DNA of 34,317 nt from an uncultured bacterium (GTDB lineage Bacteria; Planctomycetota; UBA1135; UBA2386). Both the position numbers and the translations under genes were made by a program. The stretch covers positions 1 through 34,317 of the forward strand of contig CBESZZ010000002.1 of the NCBI GenBank assembly GCA_965534055.1. Direction: 5' to 3'. The notes under the pieces were generated by a model that searched no databases, was not told the origin of the DNA, and was given only the letters and a program-made list of their open reading frames with translations. Within the stretch, counting starts at the first letter, position 1. Each line of letters begins with the position of its first letter. Shown here one piece after another: positions 1 to 33,377 of the stretch.

Positions 1-159
1 TGCACAAAGAATCGGGTGTCCACGGGCGCCGCAATCCGCGGCCACCCGTGGTTCCCACGGCTACGGCCAGGCTTGCGGATTGTTGGACCCGGCGTAGTTT
101 CTCTGTGCCGCAAACAACGCCTCCTTGACTGGCTGAGGTCAGGTTCGACACTCGTCGCC

Positions 160-771: not shown

Positions 772-795
772 TATGGATTCGCTGGGGGCCATTCG

Positions 796-1341: not shown

Positions 1342-1393
1342 CCGCAGAAAGTCGATCCCATGGGCCTCTCCACTCCATTTCGGAGCCGACGCC

Positions 1394-3828: not shown

Positions 3829-3830
3829 TT

Positions 3831-3877
3831 CGCGCAGAGCGGCGAACATCGGTGCGCGGAGTCCACGACTCTGCGCG
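3831..3877. repeat. 9-bp perfect inverted repeat (CGCGCAGAG ... CTCTGCGCG) in the 69-nt gap between convergent genes
   Basis: Read directly: 3831..3839 is the reverse complement of 3869..3877, with a 29-nt spacer. There is no U-tract, so it is not a classical intrinsic terminator. Confidence 0.3.
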
Positions 3878-3897
3878 TCACGTCCTCGATGATCGAT

Positions 3898-4800: not shown

Positions 4801-4987
4801 GGGTGATTGGGTGGTAAGAGAGCGTGTCTCATGCGATTGAGCCCCCGGATGATTCGCAGTTCTTGAGCGTTGCTGTGACCGCTGAGCCTTCAAATTCGGT
4901 GAGACCGGAGCCCGAGCTCCAGCCCGTGGGGCGGGCCTTCGCAGCGTTCAGACTCAGCCGGCAACGCGCCCGGCAGTTCGCCGCGCC

Positions 4988-10083: not shown

Positions 10084-10093
10084 TTCAGCGGGC

Positions 10094-10948: not shown

Positions 10949-10954
10949 GCCGCG

Positions 10955-12748: not shown

Positions 12749-12865
12749 GCCACGCAGATCGCGGCCGAGCGCGGAGATTTGGCGGCTGTCTCGCCCGTGA
12801 CGACGCTGGATTGCGGGATGTGCCGCTTCGAGGCGGACGCCGCGCTTCGCTGCTGGATCGAGGAG

Positions 12866-14026: not shown

Positions 14027-14718
14027 TTCGGCGCGCGCGTGATGGTGACGTGGCGGTCCGAAGTCTGTTCGACCTTGGCGTCCTGCAGCCCGACCGAATC
14101 CGCGACGTGACGCAGTTCATCCAACGTGAGCGCCGCGTGCAGGCTTTCTGCGAACAGCTTCTTGTGCGATGGCGTGCCGTTCGCAACGTGCTCGTTGACC
14201 AGCGCCTGCAGCGCCGCTTCACTGCTGGGTCGCACCAGGTCCCGCACGAACAAGATGCCATCCGCAGCCAGCACTCGCTTCGCCTCCGCTAGGAACTCCG
14301 AGGGCCGTGGGATGTGGTGCAGGATCGTGTTGGAAAAGACCGCATCGAACGAGCCGTCTTCGAACGGCAGCGCTTTCACGTCGGCCTGGTGCAGCTCGAT
14401 CCGTGAGGCGTAGCCCGCGCTCTGGACCTTGGGCCGTGCGATGTCGAGCATGGTTGCCGCCGCGTCGACTCCGACGAGCCGCAGTTCGGCGACCCGATCC
14501 GCCAAGAGGATCGGAATGTCCGCTGGTCCGGTACCGAGGTCCAGAACGTGCTTGAAGGAGCCACCCAGAGCCTGGGCCGTGCCGGCCTTCACGCAGGTGG
14601 CACGGAATGCCAGGAAGTCGTCTACGACGCGCGCGTTAGCCGCGCTGTTGTCCATGGCGTCGTAGGAGTCTGACTCCTCTGAGGTGTCCATGTATTCCGG
14701 TTCGAGGATGCGCTTCAT
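14023..14718 (-). CDS. class I SAM-dependent methyltransferase
   Basis: Motif I VLDLGTGPADI, acidic loop LVGVDAA, post-I/II FDAVFSNTILHHI and ADGILFVRDL. ATG start. Confidence 0.85.
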   Translation of the reverse strand: MKRILEPEYMDTSEESDSYDAMDNSAANARVVDDFLAFRATCVKAGTAQALGGSFKHVLDLGTGPADIPILLADRVAELRLVGVDAAATMLDIARPKVQSAGYASRIELHQADVKALPFEDGSFDAVFSNTILHHIPRPSEFLAEAKRVLAADGILFVRDLVRPSSEAALQALVNEHVANGTPSHKKLFAESLHAALTLDELRHVADSVGLQDAKVEQTSDRHVTITRAPN

Positions 14719-14735
14719 GTGAGCAGTCTCGCAGG

Positions 14736-15359
14736 TTGTGGGGCGGAGCGGGTGAGGAAAACGGTCATGCTTTTGGCTCCGAGGACCCGGCAGAGGTTCT
14801 GCATCTGGGCAAGGACGCAGCTTGGTCTTCGCTGCCGTCGTTAGGTGAGTTCACGACGGGTTTTCCAGTGGCCAGGGGCCTCGTCAAGTTCTGGTGCCGG
14901 AGTGGTTCGCTGAATGCAGACTCCGTGGCGATTCGCGGCACCGGGAGTTTGATCCTCGATTCTGACGTGATGGTGGTTGGCGCCAATGGCGGTCCGGGCG
15001 TGGACCCTCGCGTGTTGGCTCGCGTGACGTCGATTCCGACCGTTCGGACGACGGGTGCGTCGATTGGCGGCACCGCGCAGGTCGCGTTCGATGGTAGTCC
15101 TAACGAGGCGTGGCTGTTGGCGATTGGCGAATCCTGCAGCCCGCGCGTGGTGCCCGGTGTGTTGGGTGCACTTTGGATCAGTGACCAGCAGCTCGCAGCG
15201 GTGGGCGTCTTCCCGAGTTCGGGCTCCGCGAGTTCCAGTCTCACAATCGCCAACGACCCTGGGCTGCGCGGCCTGCAGCTTGTTTATCAAGCCGTCGCGA
15301 CGGCAGCGGGCGAAGAGTTGCGCTTCTTCAATCCCGCGATGTTCTCCGTGGGTTTGTAG
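14736..15359 (+). CDS. hypothetical protein carrying a C-terminal module shared with the secreted protein at 24594..25766; no signal peptide, possible remnant
   Basis: TTG-initiated ORF with moderately G/C-rich third positions. The C-terminus (SGSASSSLTIANDPGLRGLQLVYQAVATAAGEELRFFNPAMFSVGL) is collinear with the end of the 24594..25766 product. A competing antisense ORF (14765..15253) looks like a shadow. Confidence 0.4.
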   Translation: MWGGAGEENGHAFGSEDPAEVLHLGKDAAWSSLPSLGEFTTGFPVARGLVKFWCRSGSLNADSVAIRGTGSLILDSDVMVVGANGGPGVDPRVLARVTSIPTVRTTGASIGGTAQVAFDGSPNEAWLLAIGESCSPRVVPGVLGALWISDQQLAAVGVFPSSGSASSSLTIANDPGLRGLQLVYQAVATAAGEELRFFNPAMFSVGL

Positions 15360-15546
15360 AGAAGTCGAAACTTGCCATGCCGATGCGGCTAGAGGCCGCG
15401 TGTCTATTCTTAGCTACCGTGTCCCAGCCATGATCGGGATCCCGCTCGCCATTGGGGTCCCGTTCGCGTTGTTGTTTTGGCCTTCGGAACTGATTGGCGT
15501 TGGTTGAGGCTCTCACCACTTCGATCAGTTCGATCGAGCCGAACTC

Positions 15547-16032
15547 TTGCATTGGGCCAAGGCCGATGAGTTTGACGTCAACTCTTGGCGGTTCGCCGAG
15601 AACCTTGCGAGCTGGAGCGGCGATGTAGGCGTTGTTGAGGCCCTCGCCGAGGGCGCGCTGGCAGCAGACGAAGCCCAGTTTCCGAGCTACGTTCGAGTTC
15701 TTGCCTGGGCGAGTGTTTGGTGCCCTGCGTTGTCGATGATCGCCCAGCGGGGTGCGGCTGACCTGGACTGTCTCGTTGAACACGGGCTGGCCGAGTTTGC
15801 CACGGTGGTGCGTCGGAGCGACGCCATGTTGGATCCTGTCGTCGCAAGGCTGGTGTGGGGCTATTCGCAGGCCTGTTTCGAGAAAGGGCGAACCCGCAGT
15901 GGATTGTCCGTCTTCGATCTCTTCGGCACGTTCGAGGAGTCTCTCGCAGGCAACGAAAAGAGGCTTGAGATGCGTGCCGCCTCTCCGGCCCTTAGGTCGG
16001 TCGCGGGGCTGACCACTCAGGGCGCCAGATGA
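15547..16032 (+). CDS. hypothetical protein (weakly supported)
   Basis: The ORF starts at a TTG. Third-position G/C is similar to metH by eye, and the sequence is helical and Ala/Leu-rich with no recognisable motif. The overlapping minus ORF 15328..15783 is Arg-rich and looks non-coding. Confidence 0.3.
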   Translation: MHWAKADEFDVNSWRFAENLASWSGDVGVVEALAEGALAADEAQFPSYVRVLAWASVWCPALSMIAQRGAADLDCLVEHGLAEFATVVRRSDAMLDPVVARLVWGYSQACFEKGRTRSGLSVFDLFGTFEESLAGNEKRLEMRAASPALRSVAGLTTQGAR

Positions 16033-16330
16033 CGCCTGGAACTTGATGTAGAGGTTGGAAGCATCCGGACGGAGTGAGGTTTCGAATGAAGTGTCCGCCT
16101 CGGTAGAGAAGCGGGCGCTCGGTGCCTGCCTGAATAAGGCAGAAATGGGTGAGTGAGAGTCTCAGGGCGCGGCTCGGTGAAAGACCCGGCCAGACGGGGA
16201 GTTCGGCAGAGCCACCCATCCCGCCAGTTCGATCACCCAGCCGTCGTGCGGATTGGGCTAGAGTTCTCGCCCATCGCACACGGCAGGCCGCTCCTGCGGC
16301 CGCCTCGCTCGCATCAGCCCAGCCTCCCGA

Positions 16331-19864
<3,534 letters not shown>

Positions 19865-20052
19865 AGGGCTCGGTTGCGTGCGCGGTCGGCGTAGTCTGTC
19901 GCGTGCGGTGGGCCGTCTGAACCCCGGTACCAAGGGCTAAACCCTCAGGTCTGGGTGAAAGGTCCACTCACTCTGCCGCAAAACTGAACCAGGACTCTGG
20001 TTCTAGACGATGAGAAGTCCTTCTCTTCCGTCTTCATCGCAGCATTCCCCAC

Positions 20053-21474
20053 GTGCCCGCACCTCAGCCCGAACCCGCCTTGCAACCCGCGCCCGGAACG
20101 CCACCCGACGTCGTCTGTTTCGCCGGCGTGGACTGGTGGTACCACAACCGTGCCCATTCCGATGTGCAGCTCATGCGGCACATCGCGATGGGGGCGCCAG
20201 GCCGTGCTCCGCGAAAAGTCCTGCTCGTCAACTCGATCGGGATGCGGATGCCGCGCCCGGGCAAGTCGTCGCTGCCCTTCCGGCGGATGGCGCGCAAGCT
20301 GCGCAGCATGACCCGCGGACTGAAGGCTCCGGTTCCGGAGCTGCCGAACTTCTCGGTGCTGACTCCGGTGCTGCTGCCTTTCTACGGCAACGCGCGCGCG
20401 CGGGCGATGAATGCGCGCATCATCCGCAAGCAGGTACTGCGGGCGTGCAACCGCGTCGGCATCACCGCTCCGCCGCACGTCGTCGCCACGCTGCCTACCG
20501 CGTGGGATCCTCTGCAGGGGATGCGCCGCGCAAGTTTGCTGTACAACCGCTCGGACAAGCACTCGGCGTTTGGTGAAGCAGACACCGATGTGATCGGCGA
20601 GCTCGAACGCGCCATGCTCTTCAACAGCGACCGCGTGCTTTACTCCAGTCGCGCGTTCATGGAATCCGAAGTTGCCGATGCGGGGAAACGAGCCGTGTTC
20701 TTGGATCACGGCGTGGACCTGAATCGATTCAGCGGCGTGCGTGCGGAGGTTCCTGCGGAGCTGGCGAATCTGCCGCGTCCGATCCTGGGGTTCTTCGGTG
20801 GTCTCGACGATTACATCATCGACTTCGAGCTGTTGGAGCACGTTGCCCGCGCGATGCCCAATGCGAGCATCGTGCTGATCGGCGACGCAACGTTGTCGCT
20901 CGAACGACTGCGCGAACTGCCCAATGTGCACCTGCTCGGCTTCAAGGATTACGAAGACATTCCAGCCTACGGTGCTGCGTTTGACGTCGGTCTGATGCCA
21001 TGGCTCGACAACGATTGGATCCGGCACGCGAACCCGATCAAACTGAAGGAATACCTGGCCCTTGGGCTGCCCATCGTCACGACACCGTTTCCCGAAGGCG
21101 TGCACTACGCAGAGCACCTGCGCGTTGGCGTCACGCGCGAAGGCTTCGTCGATGCGATTCGAGATGCTCTTGCGGAAGGCGTTACTTCAGTGGAACAAAC
21201 CCGCCGCGACGATCTGTTGGCGGCGTGTAGCTGGAGCGCACGCGCAGGCGACTTGCTCGATTTGGCCGACGCCGCGGCTGACGCCAGCCAAAAGCGACGA
21301 GACAGCAGCGACGACGTGCCGTCCGCATCTAGCGAAGTGCTGACGCGACGACCCGCCGCGCAGAACGTCAAAGTTGTGCGGCGAACGGCCGACGAGTCGA
21401 GCTCCACGGGCGATGCTGGCGCGGGTCAGGATGCAGACCGTTCCGATTCCACGCCGAGCAAAGAGTCGAACTGA
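20053..21474 (+). CDS. GT-B fold (GT1/GT4-like) glycosyltransferase with acidic/Ser-rich C-terminal tail
   Basis: DVVCFAGVDWWYHNRAHSD, GFFGGLDDYIIDFELLEHVARAMPNASIVLIGD, NVHLLGFKDYEDIP and NPIKLKEYLALGLPIVTTP. The GTG start is uncertain. The last roughly 95 aa are low-complexity. The stop shares one base with the next ATG (TGATG). Confidence 0.8.
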   Translation: MPAPQPEPALQPAPGTPPDVVCFAGVDWWYHNRAHSDVQLMRHIAMGAPGRAPRKVLLVNSIGMRMPRPGKSSLPFRRMARKLRSMTRGLKAPVPELPNFSVLTPVLLPFYGNARARAMNARIIRKQVLRACNRVGITAPPHVVATLPTAWDPLQGMRRASLLYNRSDKHSAFGEADTDVIGELERAMLFNSDRVLYSSRAFMESEVADAGKRAVFLDHGVDLNRFSGVRAEVPAELANLPRPILGFFGGLDDYIIDFELLEHVARAMPNASIVLIGDATLSLERLRELPNVHLLGFKDYEDIPAYGAAFDVGLMPWLDNDWIRHANPIKLKEYLALGLPIVTTPFPEGVHYAEHLRVGVTREGFVDAIRDALAEGVTSVEQTRRDDLLAACSWSARAGDLLDLADAAADASQKRRDSSDDVPSASSEVLTRRPAAQNVKVVRRTADESSSTGDAGAGQDADRSDSTPSKESN

Positions 21475-23366
21475 TGTGTGGTATCGCTGGCTACCGCAGA
21501 TTTGATGGCAAGCCCGCAGACGAGGGTTTGCTTCGCGCGATGGCGAAGAACCTGCATCATCGCGGTCCCGACGGCGAAGGCTTTGCGTTGCTCGGCAGGG
21601 ATCGTTCGGTTGGCTTCGCGCACACGCGTCTATCGATCATCGACCTCGAGGGTTCCAAGCAACCGATGACCTCGGCCGGGGGGCCGGTGCATCTCACCTA
21701 CAACGGTGAGTTGTTCAACTACCGTGAGATGCGCGAAGAGTTGGTGCAGCAGGGTGTGCAGTTCGCGACCGCAGGAGACACCGAGGTGCTCCTGGAAACC
21801 CTGCGTCTGCGAGGCGAGAACGGCTTGCAGGCGCTCGACGGTCAGTTCGCGTTCGCGATCTTCGACGAGCGGGAGAACGGCGCGCGTCCGACGAACACGG
21901 ACCTGTGGTTGGCCCGAGACCGTCTGGGCATCCTGCCGCTCTACTGGCTGAAGCACGGTGAGGTGTTCGGATTTGCGTCCGAGATCAAGGCGCTCGTGCC
22001 GTTGATGGAGCATCTCGGTTTGAACCGGGAGCTCGATGAAACCGCTTTCGAACGCTTCCTGACGTATCGGTCGGTGCCCCCGAACCGCACGCTGTACCAA
22101 AGCGTCCAGAAGCTGCGGCCTGGCCACGTGCTGCGCGTGTCGGATGCAGGGCGTGTTGACGAGGTTCGTTACTGGCAGGTCCCGGCGGCTGAGCCGACAA
22201 CTCCACTGAGCGGGCAGGAAGCGGTCGAGGCAGTCGACAAAGCGCTGACGGCAGCGGTCGCGAGCCGGCTGGTCTCCGATGTTCCCGTGGGCGCGTACCT
22301 GTCCGGCGGCGTCGATAGTTCGCTGGTGACTGCGCTGGTGAAGAAGGCGCGGAACGGCGGCACCGTGGCGACTTACTCGGCGGGTTTCGACGATCCACGC
22401 TACGACGAGCTGCCCTACGCGCGCCAAGTCAGCGAGGCGCTCGGCACCGACCACCATGAGATTATGGTTGGTGCCGAAGACTTCATGGAGCACTGGCAGA
22501 AGCTGTGCTGGCACCGCGATGGGCCCATCTCTGAGCCCGCGGATGTTGCGATCTTCAAGATTGCGACGGCTGCACGACCGGACGTGAAGGTGCTGCTGTC
22601 CGGTGAAGGTGCAGACGAGCTCTTCGGCGGCTATCCCAAGCATCGCTACGACCGCAAACTCAAAGCCGCTTGGGCGATGCCCGCCGCGATGCGCGTGCCC
22701 ATGTTCCGTCGCATCGAGCGGATGCTGCCGGCGTCCAAAGCGCGCGGTCGAATCGCGGCTCGCGCGCTGACCGCTCGAAGTATCGACGAGCGGATGCAGA
22801 TGTGGTTCGCGCCGTTTACCTGGTATGAGCGCAAGTCCATGCGTCCAGGATTCGGCGATGCATTCGATCCCGGCCAGTGGAGCGAATGCGAAGGCGATCC
22901 ACTGCGTCGGATGCTCTACGTCGACTGCCACACTTGGCTATCCGACAACTTGTTGGAGCGCGGCGACCGCATGTCTATGGCGGCGAGCATCGAGAACCGA
23001 CCGCCGTTCCTTGCCCACGACTTGGTCGAGCTAGCGTTCAACGTTGCCTCGTCCGCGAAGGTTCACGGCAAGACGACCAAGTGGGTGGTCAAAGAGATCG
23101 CCCGTCGGCATCTGCCACAGGAAATCGTTGACCGCAAGAAGGTCGGCTTCCGGGTGCCACTGGACGAGTGGTTCCGCGGCTCGATGCAGGAGTTCGTGCA
23201 CGACCACCTGGTGGGCGAGGGCTCAATCGTCTCCAGGCTGCTGGACAAGAAGATCGTGCAGCGACTTCTCGACGACCACCGCACGGGGCGCCGCAACGAA
23301 GAGATTCGGCTGTGGACGCTACTCGGGTTCGAGGTCTGGCATCGGCAAGCGAAGCTGAGCGGCTGA
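21474..23366 (+). CDS. asnB: asparagine synthase (glutamine-hydrolysing) family amidotransferase
   Basis: MCGIAGY (N-terminal Cys nucleophile), HRGPDG, YNGELFNY, PP-loop SGGVDSS and GEGADELFGGY. Length is 630 aa. Confidence 0.92.
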   Translation: MCGIAGYRRFDGKPADEGLLRAMAKNLHHRGPDGEGFALLGRDRSVGFAHTRLSIIDLEGSKQPMTSAGGPVHLTYNGELFNYREMREELVQQGVQFATAGDTEVLLETLRLRGENGLQALDGQFAFAIFDERENGARPTNTDLWLARDRLGILPLYWLKHGEVFGFASEIKALVPLMEHLGLNRELDETAFERFLTYRSVPPNRTLYQSVQKLRPGHVLRVSDAGRVDEVRYWQVPAAEPTTPLSGQEAVEAVDKALTAAVASRLVSDVPVGAYLSGGVDSSLVTALVKKARNGGTVATYSAGFDDPRYDELPYARQVSEALGTDHHEIMVGAEDFMEHWQKLCWHRDGPISEPADVAIFKIATAARPDVKVLLSGEGADELFGGYPKHRYDRKLKAAWAMPAAMRVPMFRRIERMLPASKARGRIAARALTARSIDERMQMWFAPFTWYERKSMRPGFGDAFDPGQWSECEGDPLRRMLYVDCHTWLSDNLLERGDRMSMAASIENRPPFLAHDLVELAFNVASSAKVHGKTTKWVVKEIARRHLPQEIVDRKKVGFRVPLDEWFRGSMQEFVHDHLVGEGSIVSRLLDKKIVQRLLDDHRTGRRNEEIRLWTLLGFEVWHRQAKLSG

Positions 23367-23486
23367 AACCGGCTTTCTAGCCAGTTACCCCACGACGTGC
23401 TGGCTTGTGCCGTCACCTTGGCACGTTCTGAAGCGTGCACCATGTATGGTCCCAACGCTTGCGGTCCGTATCTCCACGGGCCTGGC

Positions 23487-23564
23487 TGATTCATCGAATT
23501 GAATCACTCGGCTGAATTGTTCGGCTGAGTTATCCGGATGAATCGTTCGGATGAATCACCAAGG
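23487..23564. repeat. six tandem 13-nt repeats, consensus TGAATCRTTCGGM
   Basis: Read directly, the units are TGATTCATCGAAT, TGAATCACTCGGC, TGAATTGTTCGGC, TGAGTTATCCGGA, TGAATCGTTCGGA and TGAATCACCAAGG. The array sits in an AT-richer intergenic stretch immediately upstream of the rhomboid gene. Confidence 0.85.
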
Positions 23565-23566
23565 AG
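23561..23566 (+). promoter_or_regulatory. Shine-Dalgarno (AAGGAG) for rhomboid gene
   Basis: AAGGAG lies 9 nt upstream of the ATG at 23576 and is partly formed by the last repeat unit. Confidence 0.6.
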
Positions 23567-23575
23567 TGTGTACGC

Positions 23576-24394
23576 ATGATCCCGCTCAAAGACGATGTCC
23601 GCGCGAGTCGCCGTCCCTACGTCGTATACGTGCTCATCGCGATGTGCCTGGGCGTGTTTCTATTGCAGCTCACGCAAGCTCCACAGGAGTCGAGCAACTC
23701 TGCGCGAGAGTCATCCATCGAACTGGACTATGGAATGGTCCCACTGCGCTTCGAAGTGGACTCACTGCCATCCACCGTGAACTTTGAGTACGAAGTTCAG
23801 GGTCCGATGGGACCGGAGACGGAGTACGTGCGCATCACTGTGGACGCCCCGGCGGTGCCGAACTGGCTCACCATCCTCACCTGCATCTTTCTGCACGGCG
23901 GATGGATGCACCTCATCGGCAACATGTGGTTCCTGTGGATCTTCGGTGACAACATCGAAGACCGCACCGGACGCTTTGGTTTCGTCGTGTTCTATTTGGC
24001 GTGCGGCGCCGCGGCGAGTTTGGCGCACCTGTTTGCGTCGCCTGGTTCACCCGTTCCGACGATCGGCGCGAGTGGTGCTATTGCGGGCGTGATGGGCTGT
24101 TATCTAGTGCTCTATCCACGCGCGAAGGTGCTCACCCTCGTACCGCTGTTTGTCATCATGTATTCGATGGTGCTCCCCGCATTCCTGTTCCTCGGGGTGT
24201 GGTTTGGGCTGCAGGTGTATCAGGGTTACTCGTCCACGGGTGGAACCGGCGGCGGCGTGGCTTGGTGGGCGCACGTTGGCGGGTTCGTTGTCGGCGTCTT
24301 GGCCGGAGTCTTGCTGCGGATGATGCCGCACGAGCCGGAAACCAAAGAAACGTTCGAGCTGGGTCGGATGCCGGGTCGGCGCGTCGGACGGTAG
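23576..24394 (+). CDS. rhomboid family intramembrane serine protease
   Basis: FLHGGWMHLIGNMWFLWIFG (TM2 H/N), GASGAIAGVMG (GxSG catalytic Ser) and AHVGGFVVG (catalytic His), with six or more hydrophobic helices. Confidence 0.92.
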   Translation: MIPLKDDVRASRRPYVVYVLIAMCLGVFLLQLTQAPQESSNSARESSIELDYGMVPLRFEVDSLPSTVNFEYEVQGPMGPETEYVRITVDAPAVPNWLTILTCIFLHGGWMHLIGNMWFLWIFGDNIEDRTGRFGFVVFYLACGAAASLAHLFASPGSPVPTIGASGAIAGVMGCYLVLYPRAKVLTLVPLFVIMYSMVLPAFLFLGVWFGLQVYQGYSSTGGTGGGVAWWAHVGGFVVGVLAGVLLRMMPHEPETKETFELGRMPGRRVGR

Positions 24395-24510
24395 TGATCG
24401 AGGGCTTCGGCCCTTCGACGTCGCACCGAAAATCTCGCGGCCGCAACTCCCGATCCCAGCGCCTGGTTCAAGACCGAGCGCGTGACGGGCAAAAAATCTC
24501 CGTGCGCATC

Positions 24511-24580
24511 GTGGTGTTTCGGATCTAGAGCAGTGATGCCGGCGTGTCTCCGTCGGCGAACACCACACTGTTCTTTGTGA
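24511..24580 (+). terminator. compound stem-loop followed by U-rich tract (candidate terminator/attenuator between rhomboid gene and next gene)
   Basis: GTGGTGTTTCG (24511..24521) pairs with CGAACACCAC (24557..24566) with one bulge. This encloses an inner hairpin (CCGGCG, loop TGTCTC, CGTCGG). ACTGTTCTTTGTGATTG follows. Identified by eye only. Confidence 0.3.
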
Positions 24581-24593
24581 TTGTGAGGTCACC

Positions 24594-25766
24594 ATGCACC
24601 GCGCCTTTCTTCCTCTCGTCGCGCTCGCGACGATTTCGTCCCTGCACGCCCAGACCCTGATCGTTGCTGATCCTGCCGGAGGGATGTTCGTTGAGTCCAC
24701 CGCGAACTCGATCCTCTATCCGGCAGGTGCCGGGGGTCCGCTGAACACGTATCCGATGGTTCCGCTCGTTCCACCGGTCGCGCCGTTTGCGGGTGCCGTG
24801 ACCATCGACACGACCAACGGCACCACCTGGTACACCGGCGGCGCAATGCTCGTCCAGGTTCCGCATAGCGCGTACGCCCCGGGTGTGTTCCTACCACCGC
24901 CGTTTCCGCCGACGCCCGGCGCACTTGCTGGGCCGATCACCGGCATGGCGCTCGACCCGGCGGCCGGCTTGCTGTGGGTGACCGACGGTTTCATTGTGCA
25001 AGCGCAGGTTGCAGTGCCCGGCGGCCCGATTGTCGTGCCTCCCTTTGGGGTTCTTGTCCCCGTGATCGCCCCGCCGTTCACGGGTCTGGAGTGGGACGGA
25101 CTGACCGGTTCTTTGTGGGCCTGTGACCTCTTGGGCGCGGCGTACAATTTCGCGCCGGGCGGTGCGATGATCGCAATGATCCCGCCGACGGTTCCTGCTC
25201 TCGGTCCCGCGCTTGGCATCACCATCGACAAGACCGGACTCCCCAATCCGACCGGAGCGCGCCCCGTCTACGTGACCGGTGGCGGCATCATTGTTGACGT
25301 GATCGCACCCATTCCCGTTCCGTCTGGTGGAAGTGGAACCGAGTACGGTCTCACGTTTCACCCTGCGCCGCAGCCGTTTCCGTTCAACGTCTGCCCATGT
25401 CCCAACTACGTGCACGGCCAAAGCCTGCGCGGCCCGTGCACCACAGGGAACCCCAACTTTGGGGTGGACCTCGTCGGTCTGCCGCCGGGCAACCTGACGA
25501 TCTTCGCCTACGACTTCGCGTTCAACCCTGCTTTCCCAGCGATCAACTCGTTGGGCTGCAACCTTGGGTTCACGATCGGTTCGCCGACTCTGATCGCGGC
25601 GTTCAGCGTCGCGGATCCAACGGGCACTGCGTCGAGCGTGCTACCGCTTGTGGGCGTGCCGCCCGGCTCGCTGATCTTCAACCAAATCGCCACGGTCTGT
25701 CCGGCAGACGCGACGCTTGGGTTGGTGCTCTCACCACTCTACCGCATGGCCGTTTCCGGCCTGTAG
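24594..25766 (+). CDS. secreted Pro/Gly-rich beta-propeller-like repeat protein with C-terminal beta module
   Basis: GAGG lies upstream of the ATG. Sec signal MHRAFLPLVALATISSLHAQ. Five to six repeats of about 45-49 aa share a core: IVADPAGGMF, TIDTTNGTTWYTGG, ALDPAAGLLWVTDG, LEWDGLTGSLWACD and TIDKTG..VYVTGG. The C-terminal roughly 125 aa form a Cys-containing module. Confidence 0.75.
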   Translation: MHRAFLPLVALATISSLHAQTLIVADPAGGMFVESTANSILYPAGAGGPLNTYPMVPLVPPVAPFAGAVTIDTTNGTTWYTGGAMLVQVPHSAYAPGVFLPPPFPPTPGALAGPITGMALDPAAGLLWVTDGFIVQAQVAVPGGPIVVPPFGVLVPVIAPPFTGLEWDGLTGSLWACDLLGAAYNFAPGGAMIAMIPPTVPALGPALGITIDKTGLPNPTGARPVYVTGGGIIVDVIAPIPVPSGGSGTEYGLTFHPAPQPFPFNVCPCPNYVHGQSLRGPCTTGNPNFGVDLVGLPPGNLTIFAYDFAFNPAFPAINSLGCNLGFTIGSPTLIAAFSVADPTGTASSVLPLVGVPPGSLIFNQIATVCPADATLGLVLSPLYRMAVSGL

Positions 25767-25772: not shown

Positions 25773-26510
25773 TTACTGCGTCGGCCGATCGGGGACGGGC
25801 TCAGCGGACTCAGCAGAGTCCGGTGCTGGCAAGAACCGCAGGCCCACGCCGCGAACCGTAAGAAACGTTTGCGGGTTGCGACCATCGACTTCGAACAGCG
25901 AACGCAGTCGCAGCAGCACGTTGTCGACTGTGCGATGGGTCGATGGCGTGTGCGGTCCGAACAGCACGCGAACAATCTCCTGGCGCGTGATCACGTCGCC
26001 TGGACGTCCGGCCAAGAGCCGGAGCAGTTTGACCTCGGTGCCGCTGAGCCGTTCGGTTTCGCCGTTCGCCAACTGCGCCTCGTGTGCGCGTAGGTCCACT
26101 GTGTGACCCATGAAGCGAAGCACCTCGGGTTTGTCGGTCGGCGGCTCCGTGCGCTTGAGAAGCGCCGCGGCTCGCAGGATCAGTTCGCGACGATCAAAGG
26201 GTTTGCCTAGGTAGTCGTCTGCCTTCAGCTCCAGCCCGCGAATGCGATCTTCAGTCGAGCTGCGGGCCGAGAGAATCAGCACCGGCGTTTCGTCGCCGCG
26301 GTTGCGCATCCGCGTGAGCACTTCGAGACCGTCGAGTTCCGGCAGCATGAGGTCGAGAAGGACGAGGTCGACGTGGTCGTCGCCGAGTGCGGCCAGGGCA
26401 CGGTCGCCGCGTTGCTCCCAACGCACTTCGTGCCCTTCATCTCGCAAGACGTCGCAGATCATCTCGCCCAGCGTGGATTCGTCTTCAACGACGAGGATGT
26501 GCTTCTTCAC
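25773..26510 (-). CDS. OmpR/PhoB-family response regulator
   Basis: ILVVEDE, DLVLLDLMLPELDG (phospho-acceptor Asp), VLILSA, KPF and a winged-helix end TVRGVGLRF. The GTG start overlaps the kinase stop (GTGA). Confidence 0.92.
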   Translation of the reverse strand: MKKHILVVEDESTLGEMICDVLRDEGHEVRWEQRGDRALAALGDDHVDLVLLDLMLPELDGLEVLTRMRNRGDETPVLILSARSSTEDRIRGLELKADDYLGKPFDRRELILRAAALLKRTEPPTDKPEVLRFMGHTVDLRAHEAQLANGETERLSGTEVKLLRLLAGRPGDVITRQEIVRVLFGPHTPSTHRTVDNVLLRLRSLFEVDGRNPQTFLTVRGVGLRFLPAPDSAESAEPVPDRPTQ

Positions 26511-27679
26511 GAGGGTTGCTCCATGTTCGGGAAGGAGACAGTGAATGTGGCGCCTTGACCAGGCCCGAGGCTCGCGGCGTAGACCGTGCCGCCGTGGGAG
26601 CGTGCGAGGTCGCGGACGAGGCCGAGACCGATGCCCGAGCCACCAATGTGGCCTACCCCACGGAGTGCAGTGGCCACATCGGCTTGTGGATCGTCCGTGT
26701 CATCGCTGCTGAAGCTCGTGCGGCCACGGTAGAACGGCTCAAAGAGGTACGGGAGATCTTCTGCGCGGATGCCGCATCCGGTGTCTGCAACGACGACGCG
26801 CACGATGTCAGCTTCACGCTCGAGGTGGACGTCTACGCGGTCGCCTCGCGAGGAATACTTCAATGCGTTGTCCAGCAGGTTGCGAAGGATGACCTGTACC
26901 GCTCGCGGGTCGCGGAGATAGTTCAACTCGTTGCGGGGATCAGGCGAGTCGGTCCATTCTAGGGCGATGCCCAAGGTTTCGGCACGTGGTCGCATCGACT
27001 CCAGCGCAATGCCCGCGTCGGACGCCAGGTTGCCTGGCTGTAGGTCTACGTCTTCGGGCACGGGATCTACCCGCCGCCGCTCGCGTGTCCCTGACGCCGT
27101 CAACGATGCCGCGGACAAGAGGTTGTCGACTGTGAGGTCCAGCCGATCGAGCTCTTGCCGCATCGCCTTGCGGTACCGCTGCTGGCGTTCGGCGTCGAGC
27201 GATCCGCTTTCGATCGAATCCAGACCGAGGCGCAGCGTGGTTAGGGGTGTCTTCAGCTCGTGGGTTGTCCCCGCCAAGAAGCGCTGTTGGCTGAGTCGCA
27301 TGCGCCGCTCGCGCACGAGGCTTGCGTAGAAGAACGCAACGCCAAGCAAGACGATCAAGCCTAGGAACGCGCCTTCGGCCGCGAACATGAACCGACGACG
27401 CCACGACTGTCGCTCCACCGCGTCGCGCACGCGATCGGGAGACTTTGAATCTCCGGAAGGAAGATCCAGGAGTGTGTCGAGTGCGTCGGTCGACCGATTT
27501 TCGAGCAGAAGCGCGCTGACGGTTTCCAGGCGATCGGCTTCGCGAAACTGGAACACAATCCACCAGGTCACCTGCGCCAAGCCGAACAGCACAACGAGAG
27601 CGAACAGCACCGTCGATCGCCGCGGGGTGTGGAGTGAACGCAACGTCTGGGGGCGTCTCTGCGAGCTGGGACGAGTCAT
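26507..27679 (-). CDS. sensor histidine kinase (two TM helices, about 60-aa periplasmic loop)
   Basis: H box GTTHELKTPLTTL, N box NLLDNALKYS, G1 DTGCGI and G2 GSGIGLGLV. TM helices are VLFALVVLFGLAQVTWWIV and AFLGLIVLLGVAFFYASL. The ATG at 27679 overlaps the upstream TGA as ATGA; the track ORF starts at the GTG at 27685. Confidence 0.9.
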   Translation of the reverse strand: MTRPSSQRRPQTLRSLHTPRRSTVLFALVVLFGLAQVTWWIVFQFREADRLETVSALLLENRSTDALDTLLDLPSGDSKSPDRVRDAVERQSWRRRFMFAAEGAFLGLIVLLGVAFFYASLVRERRMRLSQQRFLAGTTHELKTPLTTLRLGLDSIESGSLDAERQQRYRKAMRQELDRLDLTVDNLLSAASLTASGTRERRRVDPVPEDVDLQPGNLASDAGIALESMRPRAETLGIALEWTDSPDPRNELNYLRDPRAVQVILRNLLDNALKYSSRGDRVDVHLEREADIVRVVVADTGCGIRAEDLPYLFEPFYRGRTSFSSDDTDDPQADVATALRGVGHIGGSGIGLGLVRDLARSHGGTVYAASLGPGQGATFTVSFPNMEQPS

Positions 27680-30600
27680 CGACACGGAATGACTTCGACC
27701 ATCTGGATTCCGACTTCGCGATTGCTCGGACCCTTCACGCGGATCTTCAAGAACCCCACCGACCGCTCAAGCTGATCTGGAAGTTCGATCAGGAGCACGC
27801 GCGGCTTGGAGGGGAGACCCATGTTCTGGCACAGCTGATACCGCTTGTCCTGCTTCGGCAGGCGTAGTTCCACGTCCATCAGCAGATCCTCTGAAGCGGG
27901 CTTGGGAGCCTGGCTGTCGGTGAGCTTTGTGCGATCCAGCAGGCCGCCGAGGATGCGCAGGCACAGTGCACCGCGCGGCAGCACGCATGACGTCGTGATG
28001 GTTCCGTCGCCTGCGGCGTCCAGAGGGATGTGCAGTGCCAGCGTGCGTACGACCCCATCTACAAACCGCGCGGCGGGTCGCGGAAGATCGTCTTGCCGCG
28101 CGCGATGAAACACATTGGCCTTTGGCACCAAGTGTTGAGCAGACAACCGAACGGTTGTCGGCGGGGTTCCTGCTGGCACGTCGGCATTCGCGTGCCGGAT
28201 GTGCCATGCGATCGGCGCGCCTGACGGCAGGTCGAGCTCGAACGGCGACTGCGTGATGCTCTCGTCGAGGCGCCAACGCATCAGAGTCTGTGAACCGGCC
28301 ATCAGTGAGAGGTCCACGGGTCGGTGACCCTCAACCGATTCGATGGCGCCGAAGAGTCGTTGGCTGGCGTCGCCTGCTGGCGCTTCGAACTGCGCGTGCA
28401 GGGTTGGTTGCCGTGCGCCATCCGCGGTGGGGTGGTTGTTGGAGAGAGGGGGACGAAGAATCGTGGCACCGGCATCTTCTTGGGCGCCTCCGATCAGAGG
28501 CTCGAAGGTGCCGAACACCCGAGGAGCCTCTTGGATTTCACCGTTTGCTGTGCGTGTCGTCGTCCAGATGGCCGTGGATGGATCGAGCGTTTGCACCGCG
28601 TAGTGAAGGTCTACGCGCCGCCCATCGTTTTCAGCGTTCGTCCGTAGATTGCTCAGCTCCCACGGCACTTCACCTTGCAGCGTGGACAGCCGCGGACTCG
28701 ATGATCCATCCAGGCGAGTGGCTGCGAGGAAGAGGTCGTCGGCCGTGCCAACCTCCAGTGGAGTTGGGCGGCCTTCTGGCTTGGATGACACGCGCATGTA
28801 GTTCAGCGGAAAGGCGCGCCCGGGAACGTCACCGGTGCTGCGCATGACGAGCATTCCGGGGTTCTTGGACACGTCGTGGATGATGTGCACCCCGCCTTTG
28901 CGGATGCCCGGATCCGCTGGTCCGGATCGACGATTCTCGATCAATAGCCTGCCTCGATCGGGCAACGCGATGCAGGGCAGTTCCACGTAGGCGCGGTCTT
29001 CCGTGAGCACGGGCAGTTCAAGTGCTTCGTGGTCGATCGAATCCAAGACGAGCGCGTCCGCCCAACCGAGCTTCGACGCATGGAACGACGCGGGTGCGCT
29101 TGGGAAGTGCCCCTGACCACGTCCACCGCCGGTAAGCGCGAGTCCACCAAATCGGCCGTTGCGGGGCCAATCCAGCTGTTCCAGCTGGCTCTGAATATCC
29201 AGCAACGCCGCGAGTGAACGACCCGTCGACACGAAGCTCCCGTCCGGTTCGCGGACGGGGAGAGCCAGCATGCGAGGTTTGCCAGTCGTCGTCGTGGTTT
29301 GATCGACCGGAAGTCGCAGGCCTGGTGCGTGCACCAAGATCCAAGCATCAAACGGCGCAGCGGCCTTTGTGGTCGCAAGGTTTTCTTGGAGGTGTCTGGC
29401 AACGGCGTTTCGCAGCGTTGCATCTGCGTCTGGCTCGCTGGCCAAGTCGTCCGCAAGCATGGAAAGCAGCAGTGGCTCCGCGACTTCGCCGCGCACGCTG
29501 CTCAGGCCGCCTGACATGGCATTCAGCAGTTCGGCGACCGAACCTGCCGTCGATTTGCTGTTGGGTGGCGGGGTGCGGCGGTAGTCGGAAGGCGAGAAGA
29601 ACGCCTGGCGCAAGTCTTCCGTCGTTCCTGTGAACGGTGCGTCCGAAAACGAGAGCGGCACGATGGCGATGCGCAACTCGAGTCGAAGGTCAGAGCGCGC
29701 CGCGTTGGTGACAACTGTCGAGTCGGGCAGTCGCCGAATCGTCGTGCCTCGAGTGCGGAAGCGCACGCGATCCAGGAAGCACGCGCCAACCATGGCGTCG
29801 AACGACACATCGACGTAACCGTCCGGCCAGAGGCGTCTGTCGGCCAACGTGTAGTTCGCGGTCCACGTGGCGCGCAGCGCGAGTTCCGCGTTTGGGTTCG
29901 CCTGGGGTTCCAGCGAATCGAGAGCGCCTGATTCGTCCCCTACCGAGTTGAGTGACGAATCGGATTCATCGACGAGTTCGCCGTCCGCGGGCAGCAACGG
30001 CTGATCGTCGACGCGCAGGACGAACGACCCTGCACCGTGCACCTCCAGGTCCAGCGCGGTCGCCGTCGTCGGCACGGAGATCCGATAGGTGATCGATGTT
30101 TCTGGCGGCACGACGCGGCATGTGCGGGTGGTTTCGGGATAGCGGCCGATCTTCGAAACTCCGGCGTCAATCAATCGGTGTTCGTCATCGCGTCCCGGTT
30201 CGATCGACGCACGGGAACCGATCGTGAAGCGGTGCCAGCCTTCGGTGGGCGCGCTGAGAACGACTTTGTCGTCGATCTTCGCGACCAGTCGCATTCGCAG
30301 CGACTCTCCGGGATTGCGATCTGCTAGATCCAACCGATCCGCACCGGGATCGCTGGTGTCGACCATCAGCTGATGCAAGCTCGGATCGCTTTCCAGCGAG
30401 GCAACGGGGCGCAGCGGCAGAACCCACTGTTCGCCACTCTCGGCTTCGACTTCGAACGCGTAGCGAAACGGTGCGCCAAGCGTGGTCTCCGCCGCCGCCC
30501 ACGGCGAGAAGGGTGTGCTGTTCGCGTACTCCGTGCTTGGTTGGAAGCGAAGCTGAGGCAAGCGAGTCACTGGGAGTTGCAGGCCGAGGCTCAACTCATC

Positions 30601-33165
30601 TCGGCTGTGTTCGCCACAGTCCGTCGCACCGCAGAACACTCGGAAGCGAATGTCCGGCGGTCCGGGCAGGTGATGGAACGTGACGCGGGCCTGTCCGTGG
30701 TCGGCGATCGAATGCAGCTGCAGACGCACCATGCGCGTCTCCGTGTCGATCTGTAGATCCTTGGCCCAGATGGTGTCGACACCCAGCGCCACGGGTGGCG
30801 TTGTGCCATCCACGATCACTTGGCCGAGTCGCCTGCGCACGGCCTCCGCGATCGTGACCGATGTGCCAATGCCCCAATACAAGTCGCGTGCGGTGATCGG
30901 CTTCGGCGGTGTCGCCTGGATGCCCAACGCGTTCGCCAAACTCGCACGAAGCGCGGCGAGTCCTCGCACCAAAGTGGCTCGGTCTGCGGATTGGGACCAA
31001 GCCGTGAGCCAAACGTCTGCTGCGAGCGCTTGCCGAGGGTCGTCGCGGACCGTTGCAAGTCCGTGTGCTCTGAAGCCGCCCACGGTTTGGTGGGGATCGC
31101 CGGCGCGGGGATCCACAATTTGCAGCGCGGCGAGGTCTGCGAGGCAGCGGTCGAACAGGCGGTTGAGTTGAAGCTCTGCAAGCGGGTTGTCGCTAGCTCC
31201 GTCGATCGTGCGCAGGATTATGATGGCCTGCGCGGCGAATGCGGGCCCAAAGAAGCTCGTTGGGCTTTGCAGGCCTGCAGGCCGTGGTTCCGCGTTGGGC
31301 TGTGCTGCGAGCACTTCGGGATCTCGCCACGGATCCAGCGAGTCGGTGTCACTCGGTGGCGCATCACCGGTCGTGAGAAGCGCGTCGCCGATCGCTAGCA
31401 GTGCGGTGCGTGCCGCGGCGATGCTCTCCCGCGATCCGGAGATCCGCGACCAGATGGCGAGGTATCGAGCCACCGCGGCGGACTCCGCGGGGCTGCCGAT
31501 GAATGGGCCGTTGCGCGGCGCGCTGTAGCGGCTGTCGAAGTAGGCCGGAAACGCGCCGTTAGGCATCTGGTTGGCCAACGCGAAATTGTTGAGGCGGCGG
31601 GCGGTGCGAAACACCTGCAAGCGCACATTCGGCAGGTTTTGGCTCAGCTGCAGCATCCAGTAGCCGGTCGTCGCTGCATCGGCGAGTCGAATGTGATCTT
31701 CGATCCCCGTCTCTTCATGACCGAAGCTGCTGAGCAACGTCTCGATCGAACCCTGGTCGTCCGCCGCGAAACTCCAAGCTGCGGGAAACGCTGCGGTCAC
31801 CTGCGGCGCTTCGAGCAGCGCCGTCAGGAAGTCTGCGGCGATGGTTCGGTGAGATTCTTCTTCGCTCGCCGCAAGGCCGGTGCCGAGGCGGAGAAGCTGG
31901 AGCCTGGTGGTGAACCAGGCATCCTGCGGGCCGGCGCGCTCCAGGCTGGGCAAGGCCAGCCGTTTCTCGCCCAAAGACACCCGCTGCAGTGCGCCCTTTA
32001 GGCGCGGCCCGAAGACGTTCTCAACCACATCCCGCAGCGTGAAGCGGCCTGGCTGTTCGAGTTGTCTCTTGAGGGCTGGGAGCGCGAGGTCTGACTCGAA
32101 GTTCTTGGCCGCAACCGCGGAAGCCGGTCCTGGCAGAATGGTCACCGTGTGGTGGGCGATCAACGTCTCCCCCTGCACCAGGCGAGGGGGAGCGGGCACG
32201 AAGCGCAGGCTTTCAGGTGCTTCCGGTGCCGCGTCCGTTCGGTTGCGGGTCGCGGTGTGAGTGAGGAAGCCGAACCCGAGCTGTGACGATGAGGGCGTTG
32301 CGAGGATTGCGTGCGGTAGCGACCGGCTCTCCGCTGGGTCGAGTTTGAACTCTTCAGATGGCTCGGCCGTCGTGGTTGATTCGCCGCGCGCTGTGATTGG
32401 GTTCCAGCCTTCGTCCAACCTGGCAGTGGTTTGCGGCGCGATCCGCATTCCACTCTCCGCTCCGTGCATGGTTGCTCCGCGGCCGAGAAAGGCTGCTTCC
32501 CCGGTGATGAACCGATTCGACGTCTCAGGCATGGGAGCTGCGTGCGGCATCGACCAGGAAACCACGGGCACCGCTCCCTCCGTGACCGGATCGATGAGCG
32601 TGTACTCCAACGTGAGCTCGTAGAGCTGCGACGCCAACCCTGCACGGTCGAGCAATTCGACGTCAAAGACGGGCAGCGTTTCGGAGGTGCGGGTGAACAC
32701 TCGCACCTCCACTTCGTGGCCGGACGCGCGGCATGGCAGCAGCAGCGCGCCGGGGCCGATCCGCGTGGGTCGCCCGAAGTGCAGTACGGTTGTCTCCAAG
32801 GTGTCGCCAGGCCCGGAGGTCGTCAGCCGCACGCCGCGGCACGTGATCCTTGGGTCGACACGGTCCGAGGGCGCCTCGGCCGTGACGACACCGAAGAATA
32901 GCTGGTGAGACTTGTCATCCAATCGGCGCGTCCAGATGCGTCCTTCCGGTGCTGCATCGTTCGGGCCTTGGACTGGGAATGTTTTGCTGGCCGCCTCGAA
33001 CGGTCGCTCCGCTGCGGAGACCGTGGGCAGTCCTGGGCCGGGGCCGGTCGATGGTGTCGGCGGCCCGGGGCGCGTTCCGCAGCCAGACACGAGGGCACAA
33101 CCAGCCGAGATGCCGACCACGGCGGTCGCGAAGCGACGAATCGAGCAACCAAGGCCAGAACTCAC
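27676..33165 (-). CDS. giant (1,829-aa) multidomain lipoprotein of unknown function
   Basis: Uninterrupted 5.5-kb ORF with a GTG start. The N-terminus MSSGLGCSIRRFATAVVGISAGCALVSGCG has an RR pair, a hydrophobic core and the lipobox VSGC. A helical region has Q..NGAFP-type toroid-like repeats (residues about 415-780). An M6/InhA-like stretch spans residues about 1163-1440. The remainder is beta-rich. Confidence 0.85.
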   Translation of the reverse strand: MSSGLGCSIRRFATAVVGISAGCALVSGCGTRPGPPTPSTGPGPGLPTVSAAERPFEAASKTFPVQGPNDAAPEGRIWTRRLDDKSHQLFFGVVTAEAPSDRVDPRITCRGVRLTTSGPGDTLETTVLHFGRPTRIGPGALLLPCRASGHEVEVRVFTRTSETLPVFDVELLDRAGLASQLYELTLEYTLIDPVTEGAVPVVSWSMPHAAPMPETSNRFITGEAAFLGRGATMHGAESGMRIAPQTTARLDEGWNPITARGESTTTAEPSEEFKLDPAESRSLPHAILATPSSSQLGFGFLTHTATRNRTDAAPEAPESLRFVPAPPRLVQGETLIAHHTVTILPGPASAVAAKNFESDLALPALKRQLEQPGRFTLRDVVENVFGPRLKGALQRVSLGEKRLALPSLERAGPQDAWFTTRLQLLRLGTGLAASEEESHRTIAADFLTALLEAPQVTAAFPAAWSFAADDQGSIETLLSSFGHEETGIEDHIRLADAATTGYWMLQLSQNLPNVRLQVFRTARRLNNFALANQMPNGAFPAYFDSRYSAPRNGPFIGSPAESAAVARYLAIWSRISGSRESIAAARTALLAIGDALLTTGDAPPSDTDSLDPWRDPEVLAAQPNAEPRPAGLQSPTSFFGPAFAAQAIIILRTIDGASDNPLAELQLNRLFDRCLADLAALQIVDPRAGDPHQTVGGFRAHGLATVRDDPRQALAADVWLTAWSQSADRATLVRGLAALRASLANALGIQATPPKPITARDLYWGIGTSVTIAEAVRRRLGQVIVDGTTPPVALGVDTIWAKDLQIDTETRMVRLQLHSIADHGQARVTFHHLPGPPDIRFRVFCGATDCGEHSRDELSLGLQLPVTRLPQLRFQPSTEYANSTPFSPWAAAETTLGAPFRYAFEVEAESGEQWVLPLRPVASLESDPSLHQLMVDTSDPGADRLDLADRNPGESLRMRLVAKIDDKVVLSAPTEGWHRFTIGSRASIEPGRDDEHRLIDAGVSKIGRYPETTRTCRVVPPETSITYRISVPTTATALDLEVHGAGSFVLRVDDQPLLPADGELVDESDSSLNSVGDESGALDSLEPQANPNAELALRATWTANYTLADRRLWPDGYVDVSFDAMVGACFLDRVRFRTRGTTIRRLPDSTVVTNAARSDLRLELRIAIVPLSFSDAPFTGTTEDLRQAFFSPSDYRRTPPPNSKSTAGSVAELLNAMSGGLSSVRGEVAEPLLLSMLADDLASEPDADATLRNAVARHLQENLATTKAAAPFDAWILVHAPGLRLPVDQTTTTTGKPRMLALPVREPDGSFVSTGRSLAALLDIQSQLEQLDWPRNGRFGGLALTGGGRGQGHFPSAPASFHASKLGWADALVLDSIDHEALELPVLTEDRAYVELPCIALPDRGRLLIENRRSGPADPGIRKGGVHIIHDVSKNPGMLVMRSTGDVPGRAFPLNYMRVSSKPEGRPTPLEVGTADDLFLAATRLDGSSSPRLSTLQGEVPWELSNLRTNAENDGRRVDLHYAVQTLDPSTAIWTTTRTANGEIQEAPRVFGTFEPLIGGAQEDAGATILRPPLSNNHPTADGARQPTLHAQFEAPAGDASQRLFGAIESVEGHRPVDLSLMAGSQTLMRWRLDESITQSPFELDLPSGAPIAWHIRHANADVPAGTPPTTVRLSAQHLVPKANVFHRARQDDLPRPAARFVDGVVRTLALHIPLDAAGDGTITTSCVLPRGALCLRILGGLLDRTKLTDSQAPKPASEDLLMDVELRLPKQDKRYQLCQNMGLPSKPRVLLIELPDQLERSVGFLKIRVKGPSNREVGIQMVEVIPCR

Positions 33166-33344: not shown

Positions 33345-33377
33345 AAAAAAGGCGAGCCCTGACAGGCTCGCCCTTTT
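33345..33377 (-). terminator. rho-independent terminator downstream of porin gene
   Basis: On the minus strand the sequence reads AAAAG-GGCGAGCC-TGTCAG-GGCTCGCC-TTTTTT, about 55 nt after the porin stop. It is a perfect 8-bp GC-rich stem with flanking A and U tracts. Confidence 0.7.

Follow-up and report, generated by a model that had tools for sequence, protein, structure and literature searches.

A giant Planctomycetota lipoprotein between a porin gene and a two-component pair: a putative composite of an envelope cassette and a heme-associated regulatory unit

The stretch of DNA analysed here, 34,317 nucleotides from an uncultured planctomycete (GTDB lineage Bacteria; Planctomycetota; UBA1135; UBA2386; assembly GCA_965534055.1, contig CBESZZ010000002.1, positions 1 to 34,317; hereafter the window, meaning the whole of it), carries the gene for a giant lipoprotein of 1,829 amino acids (aa), followed on the same strand by the genes for a histidine kinase (HK) and an OmpR/PhoB-type response regulator (RR). 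In our reading, to which we give a probability of about 0.55, two units, each conserved in Planctomycetota, come together at this locus, namely a porin-giant cassette and a two-component pair associated with heme biosynthesis (hem) genes, which are neighbours by synteny. An old syntenic block broken in different ways in different lineages is the most economical reading of the data, and a dedicated relay from the giant to the kinase is not required by them.

A sequence-only reading of this DNA had put forward, as one plausible view, that the kinase receives its signal from the lipoprotein acting as sensor, and had suggested checking whether homologues of the giant are always followed by an HK-RR pair. 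For this, we compared 14 giant loci with downstream sequence, including ten distinct loci (L001-L011) taken through giant homologues. The linkage is not conserved, and most giant homologues do not adjoin such a pair. HK and RR lie directly downstream of the giant in 3 of the 14 loci (the window, L038 and L043), after one intervening gene in one (L044) and after four hem genes in another (L001), while a hem cluster starts 3.8 kb downstream in L009 and the remaining eight have no two-component genes in reach. Direct adjacency was found in none of the ten loci sampled via the giant. In L001, the genes hemA-hemCD-hemB-hemL-HK-RR-hemE-hemN-hemY come directly after the porin and the giant, forming a single co-directional block (its hem-HK-RR part spans 15023..24932, and the corresponding block of L036 spans 4717..14473). 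The downstream side of the giant is otherwise variable: FliM/FliN flagellar genes follow it directly in five loci, and elsewhere the genes there encode glycosyltransferases, hydrolases or unknown proteins. In L044, the gene between giant and kinase (6331..7428) encodes a 366-aa secreted protein with no Pfam match. A neighbour-joining tree of the giants is star-like, the loci linked to HK-RR or hem genes are scattered over it, and the nearest relatives of the window giant (L005 and L004) are not linked to the kinase pair.

The upstream side is much more constant. A porin gene lies directly upstream of the giant, on the same strand, in 13 of the 14 loci including the window, and in 9 of the 10 loci sampled via the giant; the constant partner of the giant is thus this upstream porin. 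In the window, the porin is cut by the edge of the sequence, so that the 241-aa open reading frame listed there is not the whole gene. By tblastn, the window fragment is 33-51% identical to genes of about 420 codons that lie directly upstream of nine giant homologues. It ends in ...MFTLVF; signal peptides are present in its homologues, which also end in F. The match of the window fragment to PF07396 is marginal, at 21.0 bits (cutoff 20.9; E 2.3e-4), and spans positions 81-369 of the 370 in the profile; precomputed PF07396 matches exist for the L001, L004 and L011 homologues, and our own scan of the L004 protein gave none. Porins of this family also occur outside the cassette: a porin-based metagenome scan returned 24 porin loci, with the giant in only two of them (both truncated), and seven metagenome loci with at least 4 kb of sequence downstream of the porin have no giant there. 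A porin-based GTDB scan found no relatives.

The spacer between porin and giant contains a GC-rich hairpin resembling a terminator or attenuator. A strong GC-rich hairpin is present in this spacer in all ten other loci examined (L001-L005, L007, L008, L010, L011 and L038); its structure is conserved and its sequence is not, and the run of six T was noted in the window. Such a structure points to termination or attenuation in the gap that separates a strongly expressed porin from the giant.

The porin family resembles the phosphate-selective porins OprO/OprP in its match to PF07396, its signal peptide and its C-terminal aromatic residue. The match is, however, marginal, and anion selectivity is at most a candidate property here. 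The arrangement as such recalls SusC/SusD and TbpA/TbpB, in which a gene for an outer-membrane beta-barrel likewise adjoins a lipoprotein gene with glycan-binding-like folds. In contrast to those systems, the barrel here is of the small porin type and not TonB-dependent, the giant is unrelated to SusD or TbpB, and a partnership of the two proteins is putative. A literature search found no described system that pairs such a giant lipoprotein with a small porin.

Further upstream, a divergent AAA_11/12 helicase gene and a PDDEXK-like gene are present in 10 of 10 loci sampled via the giant, and a divergent molybdopterin oxidoreductase gene in 9 of 10 (it is missing from L011); the block of molybdopterin oxidoreductase, PDDEXK-like and AAA_11-AAA_12 genes precedes porin and giant in nearly all of L001-L011, L038 and L043. 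It should be noted that synteny is strong across the whole region: the helicase and PDDEXK-like genes are conserved there although nothing evident connects them functionally with the giant, and a kept adjacency is therefore weak evidence for function.

The second unit is the kinase-regulator pair. As the sequence-only reading had stated, the kinase has no recognisable sensor domain: its Pfam matches are HisKA (residues 131-194) and HATPase_c (257-384) only, with no HAMP and no PAS domain. Its two transmembrane (TM) helices were also confirmed, but the loop that they enclose, described in that reading as about 60 aa long, comprises about 50 (residues 46-95; about 45 aa in orthologues), and about 7 residues separate TM2 from HisKA. 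The regulator matches Response_reg and Trans_reg_C, as is typical of an OmpR/PhoB-family pair. No NCBIfam equivalog threshold was reached, the best matches below cutoff being PnpS/PhoR for the kinase and MtrA/PhoB for the regulator.

About 30 orthologues of the kinase (327-350 aa, 36-44% identity over 94-96% of the query) were found in Planctomycetota, and the window kinase and regulator are 37% and 51% identical, respectively, to the L001 pair over their full length, including the transmembrane region, and the L001 kinase has the same arrangement of two helices. TM1 (..LCLAQV.WWI.FQVREA.RLE) and TM2 (RRR.MFASEG...) are the best conserved parts of the kinase alignment, and the alanine-rich loop is its least conserved segment. 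Compared with about 20 orthologues, the window kinase has private insertions of 10 aa in the loop and of 12 aa and 4 aa after the dimerization and histidine phosphotransfer (DHp) domain, together with one of about 20 acidic residues in the ATP-lid region (TSFSSDDTDDPQADVATALRGVG).

The genomic context of the orthologues was obtained by two direct look-ups and by scanning GTDB with the N-terminal part of the kinase. The scan returned 14 loci, 13 of them distinct (L047 being the same as L036) and all from Planctomycetota where named. Eight of the 13 distinct loci (L036/L047, L039, L041, L042, L048, L049, L050 and L051) place the pair inside the operon hemA-hemCD-(hemB)-hemL-HK-RR-hemE-hemN-hemY, and none of these eight has a giant within 5-10 kb or a porin in reach. 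In three (L038/L040, L043 and L044) the kinase follows porin and giant, and three show neither context. The pair thus occupies a hem operon in at least nine Planctomycetota genomes, L001 included. A neighbour-joining tree of HK and RR, from which several loci were lost, is only indicative. No publication was found that describes a two-component pair within the hem operons of Planctomycetota.

The kinase is reminiscent of the intramembrane-sensing kinases of the BceS/LiaS type, since it likewise has two TM helices, no HAMP or PAS domain and a DHp domain that begins about 7 residues past TM2; moreover, its TM helices are the conserved part of the protein (WW..FQ in TM1, MF.SEG in TM2). Intramembrane-sensing kinases are usually defined by an extracytoplasmic linker of less than 25-30 aa, whereas that of the window kinase, at about 45-50 aa, is too long for the class. 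In addition, no ABC transporter or LiaF-like partner lies near the window kinase.

The arrangement of the three genes on the minus strand, with their coordinates and their stop/start overlaps of the form ATGA and GTGA, was confirmed from the sequence as previously described. The TGA codon of the giant (27678..27676) shares three bases with the ATG of the kinase (27679..27677) within ...CCGTGTCGATGACTCGT..., and the TGA codon of the kinase (26509..26507) overlaps the GTG of the regulator (26510..26508) within ...CCCTCGTGAAGAAG... The giant reading frame shows a coding-like GC content of 0.68/0.52/0.73 at codon positions 1/2/3. Four-nucleotide overlaps also occur elsewhere in the window, between the genes of two T2SSE ATPases (2746/2749), between those of Ham1 and LepA (9415/9418), and between an orphan gene and a methyltransferase gene (14023/14026). 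Such overlaps join unrelated genes as well; they indicate a compact operon but do not demonstrate a specific functional partnership. Co-translation, which had been deduced from the overlaps, stands as far as a co-directional overlapping operon goes, but the overlaps are routine in this window and hence not special. Among the loci compared, the HK/RR overlap is kept in L001, L036, L038 and the window. That between giant and HK is found in the window only, the two genes being 72 nt apart in L038, about 20 nt apart in L043 and separated by the extra gene in L044; in L001, the kinase start overlaps hemL, not the giant. No sigma-70-like promoter was found. The features of the locus are collected in Table 1.

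Table 1. Features of the porin-giant-HK-RR locus, in window coordinates (domain boundaries of the giant are those of predicted models)
Feature	Coordinates	Strand	Basis and remarks
Porin_O_P-like outer-membrane beta-barrel, C-terminal 294 aa	33432..34317	minus	tblastn and Pfam PF07396; cut by window end
GC-rich hairpin followed by T6 run, terminator/attenuator-like	33346..33377	minus	Between porin and giant
Giant lipoprotein gene	27676..33165	minus	1,829 aa from GTG, stop codon included; list of open reading frames and about 40 colinear homologues
Signal peptide with lipobox LVSG-C29	33079..33165	minus	Hydrophobic segment, residues 12-31; Cys aligned in family
N-terminal beta-sandwich region, residues ~76-345	32131..32940	minus	AlphaFold2 (AF2), pLDDT mostly 80-95
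(alpha/alpha)6 barrel including QMPNGAFP repeat, residues ~350-780	30826..32118	minus	AF2, at least 12 long helices; Foldseek; weak PL10 profile match
Two beta-sandwich domains after the barrel, residues ~783-983	30217..30819	minus	AF2
Jelly-roll domain like a carbohydrate-binding module (CBM), residues ~986-1139	29749..30210	minus	AF2 and Foldseek; near-invariant DRRLW motif
Alpha/beta domain, residues ~1163-1399	28969..29679	minus	AF2; no HExxH
C-terminal all-beta domains, about four, residues ~1406-1827	27685..28950	minus	AF2; Foldseek, jelly-roll/CBM-like
Histidine kinase gene	26507..27679	minus	390 aa
Kinase TM1, residues 22-45	27545..27616	minus	Hydrophobic helix
Kinase TM2, residues 96-124	27308..27394	minus	Hydrophobic helix
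OmpR/PhoB-type response regulator gene	25773..26510	minus	245 aa

The giant belongs to an unannotated family, whose architecture is new and assembled from known folds. An exhaustive HMMER search of its residues 380-1579 against 1.84 billion cluster representatives returned 78 proteins, including about 40 full-length colinear homologues of 1,500-1,680 aa with roughly 20-36% identity; family members overall range over 1,570-1,830 aa. Their named sources are metagenome-assembled genomes of Planctomycetota, in which they are entered as 'hypothetical protein'. With about 40 clusters among 1.84 billion representatives, the family is, judging from these sequences, rare and confined to Planctomycetota. 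Word-indexed homologue searches, with the giant or with a 30-sequence profile of it, recovered the window's own protein only. The statement that the giant has no known whole-protein family was borne out: Pfam gave no match at E<=5 to the whole protein or to eight overlapping segments and no domain in any of 30 family members, NCBIfam gave nothing above cutoff on the giant, its segments or the 30 members, and the PDB, searched by sequence and by profile, yielded nothing beyond a match to a PL10 pectate lyase that was not significant (E 0.095).

A second family, of about 25 proteins of 750-950 aa (P0041, P0045-P0070), shares with the giant its N-terminal beta-sandwich and (alpha/alpha)6 barrel and nothing else. 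These shorter paralogues show sub-threshold Pfam matches to GH88, the glucuronyl C5-epimerase C-terminal domain and GH127, all of which are six-hairpin barrels, and one member carries a PAN domain.

That the giant is an exported lipoprotein with a VSGC lipobox agrees with its N-terminal hydrophobic segment and with a cysteine that is present in 87% of 30 homologues. The family consensus L-[AS]-[AG]-C coincides with LVSGC of the window (Cys29), and the giant carries the signal peptidase II (SPII) lipobox [LVI][ASTVI][GAS]C after its signal peptide. Because Cys29 aligns with the family lipobox, GTG 33165 is the true start and the family is one of lipoproteins; the source gene call (P0001; 1,748 aa, from a TTG at codon 82), which misses both signal peptide and lipobox, is therefore too short. 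The arginine pair of the signal peptide, mentioned by the sequence-only reading, is not kept across the family. Twin-arginine translocation (Tat), which calls for a conserved S/T-R-R-x-F-L-K motif in the n-region, was considered as the export route, given SIRRFAT in the window, but RR is absent from most homologue signal peptides and Tat export is thus unsupported.

To describe its architecture, two AF2 models were built on giant-family alignments and compared with the PDB by Foldseek. The models cover residues 30-1000 (m3c91bc1b5846; pLDDT 83, pTM 0.87) and 960-1829 (m9ae7602e28d5; pLDDT 83.8, pTM 0.83). They agree with the earlier description of a beta-rich N-terminus, a toroid-like helical region and further beta domains, and the segment work that it had called for (HMMER, AF2 and Foldseek) brought out known folds but no match to a sequence family. 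The helical domain and its Foldseek matches identify what had been described as toroid-like Q..NGAFP repeats as an (alpha/alpha)6 barrel. The top matches of the first half are the GH94 cellobiose, chitobiose and lactose phosphorylases (E 6.5e-8 to 1e-6, about 900 aligned columns), and the best matches of the barrel by itself are AGE-family epimerases and GH76 (TMt 0.5-0.58). The second half matches CBM22, SGBP-B, reelin repeats, Cry protoxin C-terminal domains and GH101. The best conserved block of the giant is the alpha/beta domain, with LRQAFFGG..EYR.TP.P...TAGSVA.L...LSGG.

The predicted fold, an (alpha/alpha)6 barrel preceded by a beta-sandwich, places the giant in the GH94/GH15-like fold class. 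GH94 phosphorylases and enzymes of the GH15/GH65 type have the same order of N-terminal beta-sandwich, helical linker, (alpha/alpha)6 barrel and beta-sandwich; owing to differently oriented domains, however, global TM-scores between the giant and GH94 reach only 0.2-0.27. No CAZy or Pfam sequence family with conserved catalytic acids was found to include the giant (no Pfam match at E<=5). Unlike the GH94 enzymes, the giant has no sequence match to any glycoside hydrolase (GH) family and no invariant catalytic acid, and it is a lipoprotein with about 850 extra residues of CBM-like and alpha/beta domains.

Taken together, these data can be arranged as follows. The first unit would be a two-gene envelope cassette, made up of a Porin_O_P-like barrel, a hairpin spacer and a lipoprotein of 1,600-1,830 aa exported by the Sec/SPII route. 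Its GH94-like core and CBM-like modules, as modelled, suggest that the giant may bind or process an envelope glycan beside its porin. The spacer hairpin would lower read-through from the porin, giving giant, HK and RR a transcription unit of their own. In the second unit, the kinase would most likely sense a membrane-associated cue through its conserved TM helices. The old syntenic block, porin-giant-hemA..hemL-HK-RR-hemE.., would be intact in L001 and broken in various ways elsewhere; the pair would usually have stayed with the hem genes, and in the window lineage with the giant. As the hem genes no longer separate the two units in that lineage, the kinase ATG overlaps the stop codon of the giant. 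The pair would presumably be transcribed, and translationally coupled, from the promoter of the giant, which makes co-expression in this genome likely.

Several points weigh against this composite reading. Adjacency of giant and HK-RR recurs in four genomes, which fall on three or more deep branches in the tree of giants; a single rearrangement would not account for this, and selection for linkage may lie behind it. The sample is small and its ascertainment mixed: with the window counted, there are four adjacent or near-adjacent loci, three of which were found via the kinase. A tetrapyrrole- or redox-related cue for the kinase is suggested by the hem gene context only. Finally, the barrel has no invariant acidic residue (D496 is conserved in about 80%, D544 in 83% as D or E, and E561 in 73%), and the giant may act by catalysis or by binding.

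The alternative that survives best turns the relation around: the pair would control whichever operon hosts it, i.e., the giant and perhaps the porin here and the hem genes elsewhere, which would make the giant a product of the system's activity and not its input. Two-component genes commonly lie beside their target operons, and the pair indeed stands at the 3' end of the giant transcription unit, which starts after the terminator-like hairpin (33346..33377); giant, hem genes and pair also share one co-directional block in L001. We nevertheless consider this possible but on balance unlikely, as the sequences upstream of giant-type loci and of hem-type loci have no OmpR-box-like direct repeat in common, a single regulon would be expected for pairs that are orthologous, and most giants have no such pair nearby.

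A dedicated three-component module looks more doubtful. In such a module, the giant would be an extracytoplasmic sensor or co-sensor contacting the short loop of the kinase and controlling its activity, by analogy with QseG-QseE, LpqB-MtrB and NlpE-CpxA. A kinase devoid of its own sensor domain, encoded on the same strand as the giant with overlapping stop and start codons, invites this view, and so does the adjacency seen again in distinct branches (L038, L043 and, with one gene between, L044). LpqB, the partner of MtrB/MtrA, is a small lipoprotein encoded next to the two-component genes throughout its taxon. Accessory-lipoprotein two-component systems are known (PMC6075780, PMC12691602). In QseG-QseE/QseF, too, a small lipoprotein keeps its genomic link with the kinase and regulator across the taxon (PMC6075780). 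The window shares the layout of QseEGF and MtrAB-LpqB, namely lipoprotein, kinase and regulator in one operon and a kinase with little or no sensing domain. It differs from them in that giant and pair are linked in only 4 of 14 loci, the pair being more often in a hem operon; the conserved lipoprotein-HK-RR linkage that defines this type was not found here. The absence of a direct pair from all ten giant-sampled loci and of any two-component genes from eight of 14, the eight hem-operon orthologues of the kinase that lack a giant within 5-10 kb, and the closest relatives of the window giant (L005, L007 and L002), which are without the pair, all argue against it. Moreover, the loop that the giant would have to contact is poorly conserved and carries the private 10-aa insertion in the window. 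A dedicated lipoprotein-to-kinase module is thus attractive but mostly unsupported.

A related and, in our view, improbable idea is that the giant was the ancestral co-sensor for an intramembrane-type kinase controlling heme biosynthesis, with porin-giant-hem-HK-RR-hem as one unit. If true, this unit would link the state of the outer envelope or its glycans to tetrapyrrole synthesis, and the window would have kept the sensor and the signalling core.

Very improbable, and already largely refuted by missing motifs, is the view of the giant as an M6-type metalloprotease or as a protease trap like the bacterial alpha-2-macroglobulins (A2M). Large envelope proteins occur in either class, and the size of about 1,650 aa, the lipoprotein anchor, weak Foldseek matches to TEP1, C3, C5 and A2M (E 1e-4 to 1e-3, probability 0.6-0.9) and a single weak M6 match (TIGR03296) could be cited in its favour. 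However, that match, which is all that remains of the 'M6-like' region of the sequence-only reading, reaches 22.9 bits against a cutoff of 110.8 and is shown by 1 of 30 members. HExxH is absent from the window giant and from any conserved column in 30 members, which speaks against an M6 metalloprotease. A2M is contradicted by the missing thioester motif (no CxEQ and no Cys next to EQ, the only barrel Cys being C674 in RCLAD), by the lack of A2M, MG or thioester Pfam domains in any of 30 members, and by the wrong domain order, as the barrel of the giant lies in its N-terminal third and not near the C-terminus.

The remainder of the window (1..25766) is chromosomal housekeeping sequence, encoding two T2SSE ATPases, an ABC ATPase, LepB, LepA, Ham1, RNase PH, MetH, a GT1 glycosyltransferase, AsnB and a rhomboid protease, together with orphan open reading frames without Pfam match (10955..12748, 12866..14026 and 24594..25766). 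It contains no hem genes and no tRNA genes.

These findings indicate that overlapping stop and start codons beside a kinase lacking sensor domains are insufficient to infer a three-component system, since a census of gene neighbourhoods overturned that reading here. They also bring to light that, in many Planctomycetota, the operon for heme biosynthesis contains a small kinase without sensor domain together with its regulator, an arrangement that is seemingly undescribed. Finally, the giant represents a new, unannotated lipoprotein family specific to Planctomycetota which, with its fixed porin partner, provides a handle on envelope glycan biology in a phylum with a poorly understood envelope.

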